Shown one piece after another: positions 1-63,116 of a DNA stretch of 64,000 nucleotides. The position numbers and the translations under genes were made by a program. This DNA is from Escherichia phage PECP20. Location: sequence record OQ873415.1. One strand, given 5' to 3'. Under the pieces are notes generated by a model that worked only from the letters and a program-made list of their open reading frames with translations, was not told the DNA's origin and did no database searches. Every line of letters begins with the position of its first letter. Position 1 is the stretch's first letter.

Positions 1-133
1 AAACCACTTCAGTGTAGCATAAAAATTCAGTCCAGTTTTTCTGTACAACAACTAAATCAGGATTAAACAGAACATCTTCAAACTCATCGATGTTTGAATC
101 AGTAGTTACGTTTTTAATGATTTGACGTTTCAT
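1..133 (-). CDS. hypothetical protein, partial (N-terminal 44 codons; rest lies beyond window start)
   Basis: ATG at 133-131 preceded by GAGGAG; frame open to position 2; not in ORF track because truncated. Confidence 0.4.
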   Translation of the reverse strand, partial: MKRQIIKNVTTDSNIDEFEDVLFNPDLVVVQKNWTEFLCYTEVV

Positions 134-190
134 AATATTCTCCTCTTGTTTTGATAGGTCTATAGTATCATAGACCATAGTTGTTGTACA

Positions 191-715
191 TCATTTTAGC
201 AAAATAAAATCAACTTGTTCTGCCAATGAACGTCTAAACATTAATTGACAACTTCCGAGGATGAAATCAGGTGCTTCATAGACCGCGATGTAGTATCCTT
301 TAGCTTTCAAGAGTTCAACATCCACCTGGTCATCAAACCATGCATAAACCGCGTCAACGCTTTCAAATCCAAAATAGAACCCTTGAGCCCAATCTTCACT
401 CAATTCAAATGTGTACTCAATTCTATGGTATCTTAAGATATTTTGTTCAAGAAGTTTGTCTTCATTTACTGTAGGACGATTAGGGACATTATAGTTGTCG
501 CCGTGATGGTAGAAGTTACCTGAGATTATTCCATGTTTATCAAGGAACTCCCATGTTTCTTCAGAGTTGTCAGTGCCAGACCAACCGTAAGGTGAGCGTG
601 GTTCTTTATTCCAAGAGGTTTCCCAAATTCTGACGGCTTTACCGTCTTCGATAGCAATTCCTGGTAATGATTCACGTTGAGTACAAAAACTACGTTCTAC
701 GCGGTAAACTAACAT
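191..715 (-). CDS. hypothetical protein (174 aa)
   Basis: Long minus-strand ORF in gene-dense early region; no recognisable motif. Confidence 0.6.
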   Translation of the reverse strand: MLVYRVERSFCTQRESLPGIAIEDGKAVRIWETSWNKEPRSPYGWSGTDNSEETWEFLDKHGIISGNFYHHGDNYNVPNRPTVNEDKLLEQNILRYHRIEYTFELSEDWAQGFYFGFESVDAVYAWFDDQVDVELLKAKGYYIAVYEAPDFILGSCQLMFRRSLAEQVDFILLK

Positions 716-774
716 ATTATTCTCCTCTGGTTAATATGGTTATAATATCAAAACCAGAGGAGAAGTAAACAACT

Positions 775-2276: not shown

Positions 2277-2306
2277 ATTATACTCCAACCATCCTTGGTT
2301 GTAAAC
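2277..2306 (-). promoter_or_regulatory. T4-type early promoter (GTTTAC-N18-TATAAT on minus strand)
   Basis: Plus-strand attatactccaaccatccttggttgtaaac between dexA stop and next gene start. Confidence 0.45.
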
Positions 2307-6188: not shown

Positions 6189-6770
6189 CTAAAAATTCAA
6201 CATTTTCAAATGAATGATTTTGTATAACCGAGATAAAGGGTCATATTCTAAGTCTTCAATTTCTACAATCTCAAATCTAGAGATACCTGAGACCATGTAT
6301 TCTTGTTCAGATTCAATCATATCTAGGACGTCAACACGTTTTTCTTCCATAACATGCTTAGGGTTCTTTCCGGCGAGTACAATGTTAACCATGTTTTGGT
6401 AGTAATCGAAAATGAACGGAGCATTCCTGAGACTAAGAATAGTGTACGTTTGATATTCCCAACTCCCAGAGAACTGTCTGGCCGTACCAAAGTCTGTTGT
6501 AAACGATGTTACTCGTCCAGGAGACCAATGGCATCCTACAGATAACAATGAAAGATGTTCTACTTCTTCTGGAGTTACACCACGGTAGAGTTCTACTGGT
6601 ACTGTAGAAGTCATATGCTTACGAACAAGACGGTCTAATTCATAGTGGAAATCTGGGTCTTCCTTATAATCAGTGCAAGCCCAGAGAATGTTTTGTTCTT
6701 GTTTAGTGAATTTATCATCAATTAGTGCTGCGAGATATTCGCGTTCTTGAAGTTCAGATTGACATGTCAT
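6189..6770 (-). CDS. modB: ADP-ribosyltransferase, ModA/ModB family
   Basis: 193 aa paralog of the previous ORF (YRG, TSFT, EQEY). Confidence 0.6.
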   Translation of the reverse strand: MTCQSELQEREYLAALIDDKFTKQEQNILWACTDYKEDPDFHYELDRLVRKHMTSTVPVELYRGVTPEEVEHLSLLSVGCHWSPGRVTSFTTDFGTARQFSGSWEYQTYTILSLRNAPFIFDYYQNMVNIVLAGKNPKHVMEEKRVDVLDMIESEQEYMVSGISRFEIVEIEDLEYDPLSRLYKIIHLKMLNF

Positions 6771-13350: not shown

Positions 13351-13643
13351 TCAGCATGATAAACTGTAGCACCTTTAGTATCATTCATTTGAACTACATC
13401 TACCGGAGAAATTACTCGATAGAGACGTGGTTCACCTCCATAAGAGCGTGCTGCTCGTCCTGCGTAAATCTTTGCTAAACCGATATCTTCAGTAAAGAAT
13501 ACACGATTCAAGTTTTTCTTACGTCCGGTTTCAGACAGAACTCCTGTTTCTTCAGGAGGACAAAGCATGTTTTCGATTTTAGCTGAACTACTTGAACCGT
13601 GATAAAAAATCTTAAATTCTGCTTTACAATCGATGGTTTTCAT
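13326..13643 (-). CDS. hypothetical protein with HGS motif (105 aa)
   Basis: ORF preceded by promoter cassette; FYHGSSSS motif. Confidence 0.55.
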   Translation of the reverse strand: MKTIDCKAEFKIFYHGSSSSAKIENMLCPPEETGVLSETGRKKNLNRVFFTEDIGLAKIYAGRAARSYGGEPRLYRVISPVDVVQMNDTKGATVYHAEWAFCEEI

Positions 13644-13669
13644 TTTGTTCTCCAGTAGTTGATAGGTCT

Positions 13670-13698
13670 ATAATAACACAACTACTGGAGAAGTAAAC
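13670..13698 (-). promoter_or_regulatory. T4-type early promoter (GTTTAC-N17-TATTAT)
   Basis: Plus-strand ataata (13670-13675) and gtaaac (13693-13698); spacer carries 5' arm of an SD-sequestering inverted repeat. Confidence 0.45.
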
Positions 13699-14139: not shown

Positions 14140-14155
14140 GGAGACCGAAGTCTCC
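14140..14155 (-). terminator. UUCG-tetraloop hairpin just after gene 41
   Basis: Minus RNA GGAGAC-UUCG-GUCUCC then UUUCGGGG; followed by GTTTAC promoter-like hexamer. Confidence 0.4.
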
Positions 14156-43854: not shown

Positions 43855-43884
43855 ATTATACTCCAACCATCCTTGGTTGTAAAC
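43855..43884 (-). promoter_or_regulatory. T4-type early promoter (GTTTAC-N18-TATAAT)
   Basis: Plus-strand attatactccaaccatccttggttgtaaac, identical to the cassette at 2277..2306. Confidence 0.45.
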
Positions 43885-44874: not shown

Positions 44875-44904
44875 ATTATACTCCAACCATCCTTGGTTGT
44901 ACAT
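44875..44904 (-). promoter_or_regulatory. early-type promoter (GTACAA variant of the same cassette)
   Basis: Plus-strand attatactccaaccatccttggttgtacat. Confidence 0.4.
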
Positions 44905-46489: not shown

Positions 46490-46516
46490 GTTTTACCTCC
46501 AGTAGTTGATAGGTCT

Positions 46517-46545
46517 ATAATAACATAACCATAGACCTTGTAAAC
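46517..46545 (-). promoter_or_regulatory. T4-type early promoter (GTTTAC-N17-TATTAT)
   Basis: Plus-strand ataata (46517-46522) and gtaaac (46540-46545); followed by GGAGG. Confidence 0.45.
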
Positions 46546-47975: not shown

Positions 47976-48051
47976 TTCGTTTCGATAGGTCTATAGTATC
48001 ATATCCTAAAAGCATGTACACTACTTTTTAAAAATATTTTGACCCCCTAAA

Positions 48052-48067
48052 GGGACCCGAAGGTCCC
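48052..48067 (-). terminator. UUCG-tetraloop hairpin downstream of 48145..48333
   Basis: Minus RNA GGGACC-UUCG-GGUCCC with flanking G/C and U tracts. Confidence 0.45.
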
Positions 48068-50365: not shown

Positions 50366-50545
50366 TTATTCACCAATTAAAGTTTCAACAAAATTCACCA
50401 AAGCATTCTGGCACGCATCAACCTGATTTTCATAAAAGTCTCCGTTATCATTTACCGCGTGATAAGCTACATCATTCAAATCTGAATCGGCTTCACGTAG
50501 GTCACGGATAAGGTCCATCAATTTATTAGCTTGTTCACGGGTCAT
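50366..50545 (-). CDS. small acidic protein (59 aa)
   Basis: Hand-translated ORF MTREQANKLMDLIRDL...; below track cutoff. Confidence 0.4.
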   Translation of the reverse strand: MTREQANKLMDLIRDLREADSDLNDVAYHAVNDNGDFYENQVDACQNALVNFVETLIGE

Positions 50546-50681
50546 TTTACCATACTCGTTTCAATAAGATTCACTATGCCGTTTACCATGTTATAAGTAA
50601 ACATCGGATAATTGTATTGTACTACAACATAAGCGATAAGCAAAAGTTTCATTTTGTTCTCCGTTCGTTTTGGTAGGACTA

Positions 50682-50710
50682 CTATAACATAGTCCTACCA
50701 AGATGTAAAC
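50682..50710 (-). promoter_or_regulatory. early-type promoter with -10 inside a 9-bp-arm palindrome
   Basis: GTTTAC-N17-TTATAG; plus-strand ggtaggact-N10-agtcctacc. Confidence 0.35.
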
Positions 50711-54296: not shown

Positions 54297-54755
54297 CTAG
54301 ATTTTAATCACTGCTTTAGAAGCTTTTCCTGGTAGTCGTTTACTGTTAATAATAGCCATTCTACATTGAAGAGTCTTCATTTTGAATGTTGGATTTTCGC
54401 GACAGACTGTAAGTCCTAACCAAAGATTTCCATCAGTTATTTCTAAACGGCCTGGGCGATATTCGACACCTTCGACAAAATCTTCATCAACATCTGGACG
54501 TGCCGGCATTGATAAAAATTCTGCAACTTCTTTAACATGATTTTTTACTTTATGAAATAATTCAAAAACGTAATTCTCATCTATTTCTCTCTGGATGGCG
54601 CGATCTAAGAGATGTTGAGAATACTTGATATGAAAGCCTGGTAGTCCAAAAGACTTTGCAGCATCTTTTATACCGGCATTTATTTTGCGGAACTCCGTTT
54701 CAAAGATTCGACGGAGTTTATTACGGCGGATAAAAACTTCCGAATTGATAGTCAT
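54297..54755 (-). CDS. regB: endoribonuclease RegB
   Basis: 152 aa; near-identical to T4 RegB as recalled (MTINSEVFIRRNKLRR...). Confidence 0.92.
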   Translation of the reverse strand: MTINSEVFIRRNKLRRIFETEFRKINAGIKDAAKSFGLPGFHIKYSQHLLDRAIQREIDENYVFELFHKVKNHVKEVAEFLSMPARPDVDEDFVEGVEYRPGRLEITDGNLWLGLTVCRENPTFKMKTLQCRMAIINSKRLPGKASKAVIKI

Positions 54756-54766
54756 TTTGATTTCTC

Positions 54767-54812
54767 CTCTAGTTGACAGGTCTATAGTAACACAACTAGA
54801 GGAGAAGTAAAC
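54767..54812 (-). promoter_or_regulatory. regB upstream region: early-type promoter plus SD-sequestering inverted repeat
   Basis: GTTTAC-N17-TACTAT; arms CCUCUAGUUG / CAACUAGAGG pair the GAGG of the SD; 5' arm lies in the promoter spacer. Confidence 0.45.
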
Positions 54813-57313: not shown

Positions 57314-57727
57314 TTAGTAAATTGATTTACCATAGTATTTGTACCAAGTCGGACGTTGAGCAATTTTTTCATCTAAGCGTGCTTGACTTATCGCAATGGA
57401 CACTTCGGACGGGACATAATTATTACGAAATTCGGCAGGAATGTCGGAAATATCCTGGACTGTCGTGTCCTTGATTTTGAAACCACGTTTCAAACATTCA
57501 GCGATTAGCTCGATTTGTCGTAAACGTAAAAATTCAAGTTTGTCGTAAAAGAATGTTACGTGACCTGTGCCTAAGATAAATGTTGGAGAGATTTTAAAAT
57601 CCTTTACACGTTTACCGTTTTGAACATGTTTACGGACTGCACCAAATACGCGTGGTAATTCACGATACTCAGCCATAAGATGTTGGTCGGACAGTTCAGA
57701 AACAAGTGTTAAATTGATACGAGTCAT
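57314..57727 (-). CDS. denV: endonuclease V (pyrimidine dimer DNA glycosylase)
   Basis: Near-identical to T4 DenV as recalled ([12 protein letters not shown]...); start at ATG 57727. Confidence 0.95.
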
Positions 57728-57785
57728 AATTTCCTCCAAGTAGTTGATGAATGTATAGTATCAAAACCCTTGGAGGAAGTAAACA

Positions 57786-60752: not shown

Positions 60753-60810
60753 AATATTCTCCTCATGTTTTAATAGGACTACTATAACATAGTCCTATCA
60801 GTTTGTACAC

Positions 60811-61029
60811 TTATTTTGACATTTCTTCGATGTCACGACGATACCCATCACGAACTTCACGAAGAGCTTCAAGGCCACACATAGGCTCGATACCAGTAAT
60901 GTGAACTTGATTAATCTGATACTCTACATCTTCTAACTGAGCGAAAACATAACGACGTTCTGCTGCACAACCAGGTTTAGCTTTACCGAAACGTTTATTC
61001 AAAGTAGTCATTTTTATATCTCCATTCAC
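60811..61029 (-). CDS. hypothetical protein (72 aa)
   Basis: ORF. Confidence 0.5.
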   Translation of the reverse strand: MNGDIKMTTLNKRFGKAKPGCAAERRYVFAQLEDVEYQINQVHITGIEPMCGLEALREVRDGYRRDIEEMSK

Positions 61030-61091
61030 TCATTTGTTTTGATAGGTCTATAGTATCAACAACTACAGACCTTGTAAACTGTTTTGTGAAA

Positions 61092-62076: not shown

Positions 62077-62328
62077 TTAAATTTCACGACATGCGATATT
62101 ATATTCATCCCAGAGGTCATCATGTGAAGCCTCTACCAATGGAACGATTGTACCGTTTATGTCTTCATTATAAGGGCAAATTGTACAGTGCGCATCTTCG
62201 AATCGGATGCCTTTGTGTTCAGATTTTTTATAACGCATATCGAATATCTTTGCAAACTTTTCACGAGTAATGGTTTTACCAACCACTTTGGTTCCGATAC
62301 TTTCGTAATAAATCATTGTGGACTCCAT
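62077..62328 (-). CDS. Cys/His-containing small protein (83 aa)
   Basis: ORF preceded by promoter cassette at 62334-62374. Confidence 0.55.
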   Translation of the reverse strand: MESTMIYYESIGTKVVGKTITREKFAKIFDMRYKKSEHKGIRFEDAHCTICPYNEDINGTIVPLVEASHDDLWDEYNIACREI

Positions 62329-62378
62329 TTGTTTTGATAGGACTACTATAACATAGCCCTATCTTGTTGTAAACTGTT

Positions 62379-62576
62379 TTAGCAAGAATAACTAGATGAT
62401 ACCCAGCCTTGAACAGTGATACTATTGTGGGATAATGAGATCGCGTCCTGGAGATTCAGACCTGCGTTATCTTCAATCCATAATGTAACTTCTTCGCGTT
62501 CTTCTGCTGCAATTTGGAACAGGTTTTCCAGAGCAGCTACTGCCGTACGTACAGCACAATCTAATTCACGAGACAT
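62379..62576 (-). CDS. small protein ending W-x-SSS-x-x-C (65 aa)
   Basis: C-terminus GWVSSSYSC; tandem paralog family. Confidence 0.5.
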   Translation of the reverse strand: MSRELDCAVRTAVAALENLFQIAAEEREEVTLWIEDNAGLNLQDAISLSHNSITVQGWVSSSYSC

Positions 62577-62585
62577 ATTGTTTCC

Positions 62586-62813
62586 TTAGCAAGACATAGA
62601 GGAAGAGAACCAGAAACCTTTGCCTTCCGGAATTCCATAATCGTTACGGATCCAGCCATATTCATCATATTCTGAACTGGTCGCCGGAATATATCGGTTA
62701 AGTCCTTCAGCATACACATGAAAATACTCGCCGGTTTTATCAGCTAATTGTTGGCCTTCACAGATTAGTGCTCGAATTTGGTCTTCAATTTCTTTAACGG
62801 TTTTAGTGGTCAT
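62586..62813 (-). CDS. small protein ending W-x-SSS-x-x-C (75 aa)
   Basis: C-terminus FWFSSSMSC. Confidence 0.5.
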   Translation of the reverse strand: MTTKTVKEIEDQIRALICEGQQLADKTGEYFHVYAEGLNRYIPATSSEYDEYGWIRNDYGIPEGKGFWFSSSMSC

Positions 62814-62822
62814 TTTATTTCC

Positions 62823-63116
62823 TTAACATATTTGAGAAGAGGAGATCCATACACCGGAAGTAACGATACCATTTTCGTCAACTTCACCGCCATAGTTTTC
62901 AATTTCATCGCGCATCCAGCGACTACATTCATAACCAACAGGATAGTAAGTACGACCTGAACCATATTCACCTACATCAAATGAAACACCATACTTATCT
63001 GCGATAATAGTAGCTTCATTCTCGATATGGTCTTGAGCACGAAGAAGTTTGCTGATTGCTTCTTCTGCAGATTTAGCGTCATTGTATTCAGGGATTACGA
63101 TTTCAATTTTACTCAT
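62823..63116 (-). CDS. small protein ending W-x-SSS-x-x-C (97 aa)
   Basis: C-terminus VWISSSQIC. Confidence 0.5.
   Translation of the reverse strand: MSKIEIVIPEYNDAKSAEEAISKLLRAQDHIENEATIIADKYGVSFDVGEYGSGRTYYPVGYECSRWMRDEIENYGGEVDENGIVTSGVWISSSQIC

Follow-up and report, generated by a model that had tools for sequence, protein, structure and literature searches.

The site at positions 50672-50699 lies in a 64,000-nt stretch of DNA from Escherichia phage PECP20 (sequence record OQ873415.1), referred to in its entirety as the window, whose minus-strand genes include tk, rI, vs, regB and denV. The segment 48000-54000 shares 98.6% identity with the Mosigvirus Escherichia phage LH01, whereas its identity to T4 is just 70-80%. 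Judging from its sequence, the window represents the early region of an RB69-like T-even phage (Mosigvirus). Because the window genes are on the minus strand, the plus-strand motifs listed in a first-pass annotation of this DNA are the reverse complements of minus-strand signals.

The flagged site itself is a perfect 10-bp palindrome, GGTAGGACTA-N8-TAGTCCTACC. It had been written as ataggact-N10-agtcctat, and the symmetry is indeed perfect, but the outer bases differ from those of the quoted ataggact. The palindrome overlaps the predicted early promoter of the mobD.2 ortholog (50681-50710, minus strand), which reads GTTTAC-N18-TATAGT and consists of a -35 element (50705-50710), an 18-nt spacer with TGT at its end, and a -10 element (50681-50686). 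Promoters are named below by the first base of their -35 element, this one being the 50710 promoter. The record of phage Lutter annotates the exact orthologous 30 bp as a "promoter". Downstream of the -10 element come 18 nt, a Shine-Dalgarno (SD) sequence GGAG (50659-50662), 6 nt, and the ATG (50650-50652) of a 36-aa ORF (50542-50652), all on the minus strand.

Early-promoter cassettes of the window

The pattern GTTTAC-N17/18-TAYWRT has 17 exact matches in the window, against an expectation of 0.32, and all 17 are on the minus strand. This bears out the earlier observation of more than a dozen sites with shared hexamers and a 17-18-nt spacer. The enrichment in the window is limited to the GTTTAC-specific pattern and does not extend to the generic sigma-70 pattern, as a scan of the window for TTGACA/TATAAT returned 67 sites versus 59 expected. 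The cassettes are about 60 bp long and have a fixed order, in which the stop codon of the upstream gene is followed by GTTTAC, 17-18 nt, TAnnnT, about 16 nt, GGAG or GAGG, about 7 nt, and ATG. In 19 of 23 window cassettes, 26-29 nt separate the end of the -10 element from the ATG, and TGn precedes the -10 element in 16 of the 23, the 50710 promoter among them. The A+T fraction at -58 to -38, upstream of the window cassettes, ranges from 0.45 to 0.95. The same-orientation genes directly 3' of the promoters are orthologs of the T4 early genes mobD.2, regB, denV, nrdC.8, dexA and others.

The T4 early promoter is described as GTTTAC-N17-TGnTAtAAT plus an UP element (Hinton 2010, PMC2988021), and 57 early promoters have been predicted in RB69 (Nolan et al. 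2006, PMC1524935). The T4 records NC_000866 and AF158101 were checked for annotated promoters and contain none, and Rfam gave no match at gathering score anywhere in the window. Modules known as promoter-early stem-loops (PeSLs) have been defined in RB49 and phi1, with stem-loops mostly between the -35 and -10 elements or overlapping the -10 element (Arbiol et al. 2010, PMC2839356), and have been extended to PST/T4 with the consensus TTTACW-N17-TAYWAT and stems of the form AGNA-loop-TCNT (Comeau et al. 2014, PMC4122927). The AGGA..TCCT arms found here fit that stem pattern. To judge from their organization, the repeated sites are T4-type early (sigma-70, UP/-35/TGn/-10) promoters arranged as PeSL cassettes. 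The designation "early-promoter cassette" in the first-pass annotation is thereby upheld, since the sites fit the T4-type consensus, precede orthologs of T4 early genes and include the promoter annotated in Lutter. All of the repeats that it named exist, but some of the coordinates and outer bases were quoted incorrectly.

Hairpins around the -10 element

Folding of 26 window cassettes gave three recurring arrangements, designated classes A, B and C. Class B is a hairpin of 10-13 bp that surrounds the -10 element and leaves the SD unpaired, and is exemplified by the 50710, 60810 and 62374 promoters (TAGGACTA family) and by the 46545 and 61079 promoters and the element at 157-176 (GGTCTAT family). 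At the flagged site, the class B hairpin has 13 bp (50670-50701, minus strand; TTGGTAGGACTAT, loop GTTATA, GTAGTCCTACCAA). The first four bases of the -10 element are held in its loop, the predicted transcription start (the A of CCTACC) is within its 3' arm, and its predicted folding energy is -21.3 kcal/mol, with a z-score of -5.1. The 60810 promoter (-35 GTGTAC, 60805-60810; -10 TATAGT, 60781-60786) folds into a 12-bp class B hairpin at 60771-60800 (whole element 60771-60810, minus strand), and the exact sequence ATAGGACT-N10-AGTCCTAT occurs in the window solely here, at 60773-60798. A third copy does exist, as had been noted, but it is located at 62338-62361 rather than 62334 and contains a single mismatch, read as a G.U pair in the minus-strand RNA. 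The corresponding promoter (62336-62374, minus strand; -35 62369-62374, -10 62345-62350) folds into an 11-bp class B hairpin (62336-62363) with this one sense-strand G.U. The folding z-scores of the three copies are -5.1, -4.0 and -3.8, respectively. The ORF after the 62374 promoter has two candidate ATGs in 62314-62328; the first overlaps the GGAG (ATGGAG), and the second, 6 nt past the SD, is probably the real start.

The sub-family ggtctat...atagacc is present just as originally listed, in an N6 form at 157-176 and an N12 form at 46512-46537. The N6 form belongs to a cassette at 131-191 (minus strand) with -35 ATGTAC (186-191), -10 TACTAT (162-167), an SD, and an ATG at 131-133. The N12 form belongs to the promoter of the nrdC.8 ortholog (46511-46545, minus strand), where z-score folding gives a class B hairpin, GGTCTAT..ATAGACC, at 46511-46538; at this promoter, the nrdC.8 orthologs of T4 and Dhakavirus have an SD-masking hairpin instead. 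A further class B hairpin, GGTCT(A/G)T / ATAGACC (61044-61072), was found by folding at the 61079 promoter (61044-61079, minus strand).

In class A, the spacer just 3' of GTTTAC pairs with the leader, including the SD. Examples are the 54812 (regB), 57784 (denV), 13698, 770, 14132 and 37095 promoters, with energies of -14 to -22 kcal/mol. In the regB cassette (54753-54812, minus strand; ATG 54753-54755), TTCTCCTCTAGTTG in the spacer (54793-54806) pairs with CAACTAGAGGAGAA (54762-54775), which contains the SD, and in the denV cassette (57725-57784, minus strand) TTCCTCCAAG (57769-57778) pairs with CTTGGAGGAA (57731-57740, SD). The cassette at 13641-13698 (minus strand) has a perfect 14-bp repeat, TTCTCCAGTAGTTG / CAACTACTGGAGAA, across the -10 element with the SD included, and that of the dexA ortholog (713-770, minus strand) has 13 bp, TTCTCCTCTGGTT / AACCAGAGGAGAA. 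The promoters at 46517-46545 and 13670-13698 have a common -10 element and leader (TATTATAGACCTATCAACTACTGGAG) and unlike spacers; this leader folds in two ways, as one spacer pairs with ATAGACC (class B) and the other with CAACTACTGGAGAA (class A). Just upstream of the 14132 promoter, positions 14140-14155 (minus strand) read GGAGAC-TTCG-GTCTCC followed by TTTC, a classical tetraloop terminator. It corresponds to the PeSL type with the stem-loop upstream of the promoter, unlike the -10-spanning hairpins, and a similar element is located at 48041-48057.

Class C is a small hairpin within the spacer with an AGGA loop (2306, 43884, 44904 and 1748 promoters). It is represented by the promoter block GTTTACAACCAAGGATGGTTGGAGTATAAT at 2277-2306 (minus strand), with the spacer hairpin AACCA-AGGA-TGGTT. 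Of the four positions given earlier for this near-identical 30-mer, the sequence is exact at 2277-2306 and 43855-43884, but carries two mismatches at 44875-44904 and is a variant at 1719-1748. The AGGA loop, which is SD-like and located inside the promoter spacer, is constant, and the stem covaries, with CCACA/TGTGG in T4, AACCA/TGGTT in Mosigvirus and ATCCA/TGGAT in Dhakavirus. Spacer hairpins of this type also occur in other phages, at T4 50973 and 2458 and at positions 6291 and 7181 of the sequences L008 and L009, respectively.

The palindromes around the -10 element are not a product of chance. The chance expectation in the window is 0.00-0.17 per palindrome pattern. Duplexes between the spacer and leader of the same promoter have a mean of -10.5 kcal/mol, compared with -7.4 kcal/mol for pairs taken between promoters, and none of 20000 permutations reaches the observed value. 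Among 93 non-redundant cassettes from five genera, the region from spacer to ATG folds with a mean of -11.6 kcal/mol, whereas random segments average -7.7 kcal/mol (p=1e-8). In 32 of 59 cassettes, the centre of the strongest helix is 0 to +9 from the -10 start, with minor positions among the 59 within the spacer and about 48 nt upstream; approximately one-third of cassettes are without a notable hairpin. In T4, class B hairpins are found at ipI, mobD.2 and the promoter downstream of gene 41 (T4 20612), and class A hairpins at regB, denV, nrdC.8 and dexA.

A scan of IMG/VR for relatives of mobD.1 yielded only three loci, and orthologs were therefore taken from the phage collection. The orthologous mobD.2 promoter was gathered from 17 phages, which represent nine distinct sequences, and examination of these orthologs showed that the palindromes are present. 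Hairpins of T4-type mobD.2 promoters keep this register with 15 bp but have another stem sequence, AGTTGACAAGATTAT / GTAATCTTGTCAACT as compared with TTGGTAGGACTAT / GTAGTCCTACCAA. Over the nine sequences, 96.3% of cells in the 15-pair helix are paired, and both partners are altered in 5 of the 15 pairs. The observed covariation score was matched by none of 500 shuffles, with slid-partner controls pairing at 23-67%; the independent covariation events are few, because the nine sequences are essentially two lineages. Two A-to-G substitutions and one C-to-T substitution inside lineages retain pairing only as sense-strand G.U, and phages ST0 and DCP548 have one C.A mismatch in the stem.

At 50672-50699, the antisense RNA folds no worse than the sense RNA (-23.2 vs -21.3 kcal/mol), and the strand argument thus rests on the variants and on the other copies. 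Among 14 class B hairpins, the sense RNA is more stable than the antisense RNA in 11, by 2.8-11.4 kcal/mol, equally stable in two (the flagged copy included) and less stable in one, with ranges of -15.5 to -21.7 kcal/mol for sense and -7.6 to -20.9 kcal/mol for antisense. Over all cassettes, the difference between sense and antisense folding is marginal above background (p=0.049), and G.T outnumbers A.C within helices by 21 to 12, a count in which helix extension added spurious outer A.C positions. Pairing on the sense strand speaks for an RNA structure rather than for a cruciform in DNA or a symmetric site bound by protein. Of the functions originally suggested for the palindromes, an RNA hairpin in read-through transcripts is supported by the compensatory changes, the sense-only G.U pairs and the predicted start inside the hairpin.

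Read-through RNA and predicted Shine-Dalgarno masking

The early-promoter logo of RB69 is C-rich at -3 to -1 (Nolan et al. 2006, PMC1524935). On this basis, the transcription start is placed at the A of CCTA(T/C)C, 7 nt past the -10 element, which would put it inside or just before the 3' arm. The -10 element lies in or beside the loop, and the promoter, one of the early class, is thus contained within the hairpin. With a start at this position, RNA from the cassette's own promoter would lack the 5' arm, and the hairpin would form only in read-through RNA. The palindromes would arise because the spacer is kept complementary to the leader, with the fixed -10 element inside or adjoining the loop. 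Selection would then act on an RNA hairpin of the sense strand, which would distinguish read-through RNA from promoter-proximal RNA. We consider it probable that the sites are PeSL early-promoter cassettes of an RB69-like phage in which a sense RNA hairpin, foldable only in read-through RNA, has been selected. A ribosome terminating on the upstream gene would presumably reach just the first few pairs of the hairpin, because the upstream stop codon is 0-10 nt before the -35 element.

The effect on translation signals was estimated as the energy needed to open the stretch from SD to AUG in own-promoter RNA and in read-through RNA. The mean opening energy is 2.3 kcal/mol in the former and 6.6 kcal/mol in the latter. 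A rise in opening cost of 5 kcal/mol or more is seen in 32% of the 91 cassettes, compared with 9% of 274 control sites, which are SDs without a promoter (p=7e-10). At the dexA ortholog (713-770), the extra cost in read-through RNA is 17 kcal/mol. Pairing of the SD in the long transcript is predicted for class A cassettes such as those of regB, denV, 13698 and 770; in the flagged 50672-50699 copy and its two sister TAGGACTA copies, the SD is outside the helix and therefore unpaired.

For regB and denV, a masked SD is predicted in each of the genera sampled. From IMG/VR, a scan with RegB gave 42 contigs, with RegB identities of 55-97% and 34 distinct upstream regions, all of which are promoter-like. 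Masking of at least 5 kcal/mol is found in 31 of the 34 (median 11.3), and the distal stem sequences are unrelated. Among the regB orthologs, duplexes between a spacer and its own leader have a mean of -16.1 kcal/mol, versus -10.2 kcal/mol for mismatched pairs, and the own leader is the best partner of the spacer in 18 of 29 cases. The upstream regions L034-L037 and L060-L061 have an outer SD-masking helix (TTTCTCC..GGAGA) nested over an inner class B helix (AGGGCTAT..ATAGCCCT), and L056 and L062 have the class B helix alone, with the SD unmasked. In the T4 literature, RegB production is reported to require tight control, and RNA structure is reported to shield GGAG from RegB; both are consistent with SD masking at regB.

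For the class A genes, approximately one-third of cassettes, the read-through RNA would be translationally silent and its GGAG shielded from RegB, and translation would occur solely from the gene's own short-lived early transcript. T-even early promoters could, more broadly, be built inside RNA hairpins so that the start of the transcript decides its translatability, a general rule of "promoter-autonomous translation" that we advance tentatively and give somewhat less than an even chance. Systematic SD masking by hairpins that straddle early promoters may be new. Neither the papers on PeSLs nor the T4 reviews of 2010 describe it.

In class B (the TAGGACTA and GGTCTAT families), where the SD is free, the hairpin would most likely act as an RNA boundary element between cistrons, either as an attenuator or as a barrier against 3' decay of the upstream message. 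The PeSL authors took the stem-loops as terminators or attenuators, and the word "translation" occurs zero times in their paper (Arbiol et al. 2010, PMC2839356). The hairpins would then halt RNA polymerase arriving from upstream, which would explain the need for sequence upstream of the start site and fits class B, with its SD left free; moreover, one RB49 PeSL stem-loop cut lacZ expression as strongly as rrnB T1 (Arbiol 2010, PMC2839356). However, no -10-spanning hairpin has a U run, as AAAAC or the SD-to-AUG stretch comes next, and none was flagged by a terminator scan of the window. True hairpin-plus-T-run elements are separate and lie upstream of some promoters, e.g., at 14140-14155, and a terminator with its 3' arm downstream of the -10 element could not keep the promoter free of occlusion. 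The terminator reading was downgraded for want of a T run after the hairpins, and we regard it as rather unlikely. We give about as little credence to a purely inferential role for class B as a 3'-end decay barrier, in which the hairpin would shield the upstream message after RegB cuts the downstream GGAG; it is consistent with hairpins that end 9-11 nt before GGAG and an A-rich stretch, a context that RegB cleaves, and with a sense-strand stability confined to the narrow range of -15.5 to -21.7 kcal/mol.

Two further readings place the function in DNA. The palindromes overlap the -10 element with exact symmetry, as in classical operators, a nearly identical 24-bp palindrome is common to three promoters, and the shut-off of early promoters is unexplained in the T4 literature. 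A dimeric DNA-binding regulator had been proposed, for which a factor shutting off early promoters would be one candidate. The stems, however, differ among promoters and orthologs with the pairing kept: a single genome contains three or more unrelated stem families and the orthologs add many others, and the mobD.2 orthologs differ at 5 of 15 positions in both arms. In addition, variants that pair only by G.U break the DNA symmetry yet persist, and the class A "half-site" is simply the SD. These observations make an operator highly improbable. Palindromes devoid of RNA function, i.e., DNA-level by-products or promoters of recombination acting as a cruciform or a single-stranded DNA hairpin, would account for the coincidence of cassette junctions with promoters and for the near-identity of paralogous copies, which suggests gene conversion. 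But the crossovers are in the -35 hexamer or in the -10 element and leader and not specifically in the palindrome arms, homologous exchange needs no dyad symmetry, and neither strand-specific wobbles nor the targeting of the SD at regB and denV across genera would be expected. We judge this explanation distinctly unlikely.

Cassette exchange and comparison with known systems

Cassette boundaries were compared between the window and the close relative phage CCU7. Three junctions are inside promoters, in the -35 or -10 element. The window has an extra 262-bp gene cassette (60811-61072, minus strand; 72-aa ORF 60811-61029) that is not in CCU7 and is flanked by the -35 elements of the 61079 and 60810 promoters. 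The lone promoter of CCU7 at this place is a chimera, with the upstream part and -35 element of the 61079 promoter and the spacer, -10 element and leader of the 60810 promoter. Conversely, the window promoter at 47993-48021 (minus strand; GTGTAC..TACTAT) is chimeric in the comparison with CCU7, its upstream half matching one CCU7 promoter and its -10 element and leader another, and CCU7 has an extra 72-aa ORF between the two. At the 63205 promoter, homology between the window and CCU7 breaks exactly at the -35 element. The earlier suggestion of recombination hotspots that shuffle cassettes thus stands for the whole cassette but not for the palindrome itself as the recombining element. Indel junctions inside promoters support cassette shuffling as in the published PeSL mechanism, and the conserved cassettes would act independently as crossover points at which flanking genes are gained, lost or exchanged.

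At the mobD.2 locus, homology between T4-type phages and Mosigvirus ends at the first base of the -35 element (50705-50710; query position 211, in many matches), and the edge of the mobD.2 cassette doubles as a boundary between genera. The region 62379-63116 (minus strand) contains tandem ORFs of 65, 75 and 97 aa that end in W-x-SSS-x-x-C (..GWVSSSYSC, ..FWFSSSMSC and ..VWISSSQIC). The three resemble paralogs, and the window and CCU7 diverge here (62594-62815 replaced).

These observations add the RB69-like phages to the lineages with PeSL cassettes and provide clean examples of gain and loss at promoter junctions. Selection appears to act on the stem-loops as sense-strand RNA structures lying across the predicted start, and they would hide the ribosome-binding site of many genes in read-through RNA. 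Such an arrangement, if true, would account for the expression of tandem, densely packed early genes independently of their neighbours and for the ability of shuffled cassettes to work wherever they are inserted. It would add a third layer to the control of RegB, besides promoter shut-off and self-cleavage, and might bear on the puzzle of immediate-early versus delayed-early expression and on how early protein synthesis is shut off so rapidly. No earlier account of dyad symmetry in T4 early promoters came up in a literature search that did not extend to Miller 2003 and Piesiniene 2004. Neither the reviews of T4 transcription and post-transcription nor the RB69 genome paper reports it at early promoters; "additional regions of consensus" are mentioned, with no dyad symmetry or hairpins (Hinton 2010, PMC2988021; Nolan 2006, PMC1524935).

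In T4, the genes e, soc, 49 and I-TevI have a late promoter inside an SD-sequestering hairpin (Uzan and Miller 2010, PMC3014915). Class A resembles these genes in that the long transcript sequesters the SD and the short transcript, which lacks the 5' arm, is translated. Here, by contrast, the internal promoter is an early sigma-70 promoter rather than a late one, expression would be confined to the earliest minutes instead of being delayed, and the arrangement is widespread, not a feature of four genes only; the SD, furthermore, lies outside the flagged class B hairpins. The hairpins share with intrinsic (Rho-independent) terminators a stable, G+C-containing intergenic RNA hairpin, but not the 3' U tract. 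Lambdoid "morons" are insertions composed of promoter, gene and terminator. The cassettes are likewise self-contained expression units gained and lost among related phages, with the difference that a single repeated promoter module, common to the cassettes, supplies the homology for exchange.

With the T4 early promoters, the sites have in common the -35 element, spacer, TGn, -10 element and A-rich upstream region, with orthologs of T4 early genes downstream. The closest correspondence is to the PeSLs, which likewise combine an AT-rich region, a strong sigma-70-type early promoter, a stem-loop, an SD and an ATG in a short repeated intergenic module, place the stem-loop between the -35 and -10 elements or over the -10 element, and are associated with indels bounded by modules with crossovers inside. 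PeSLs have been described in RB49/phi1, PST/T4 and nt-1/KVP40, and not in RB69-like phages, and the hairpins differ from the published reading in that they lack U runs, straddle the predicted start and mask the SD in about one-third of cases. The flagged feature is largely already described and ordinary for T-even phages, and is an RB69-like member of the PeSL group.
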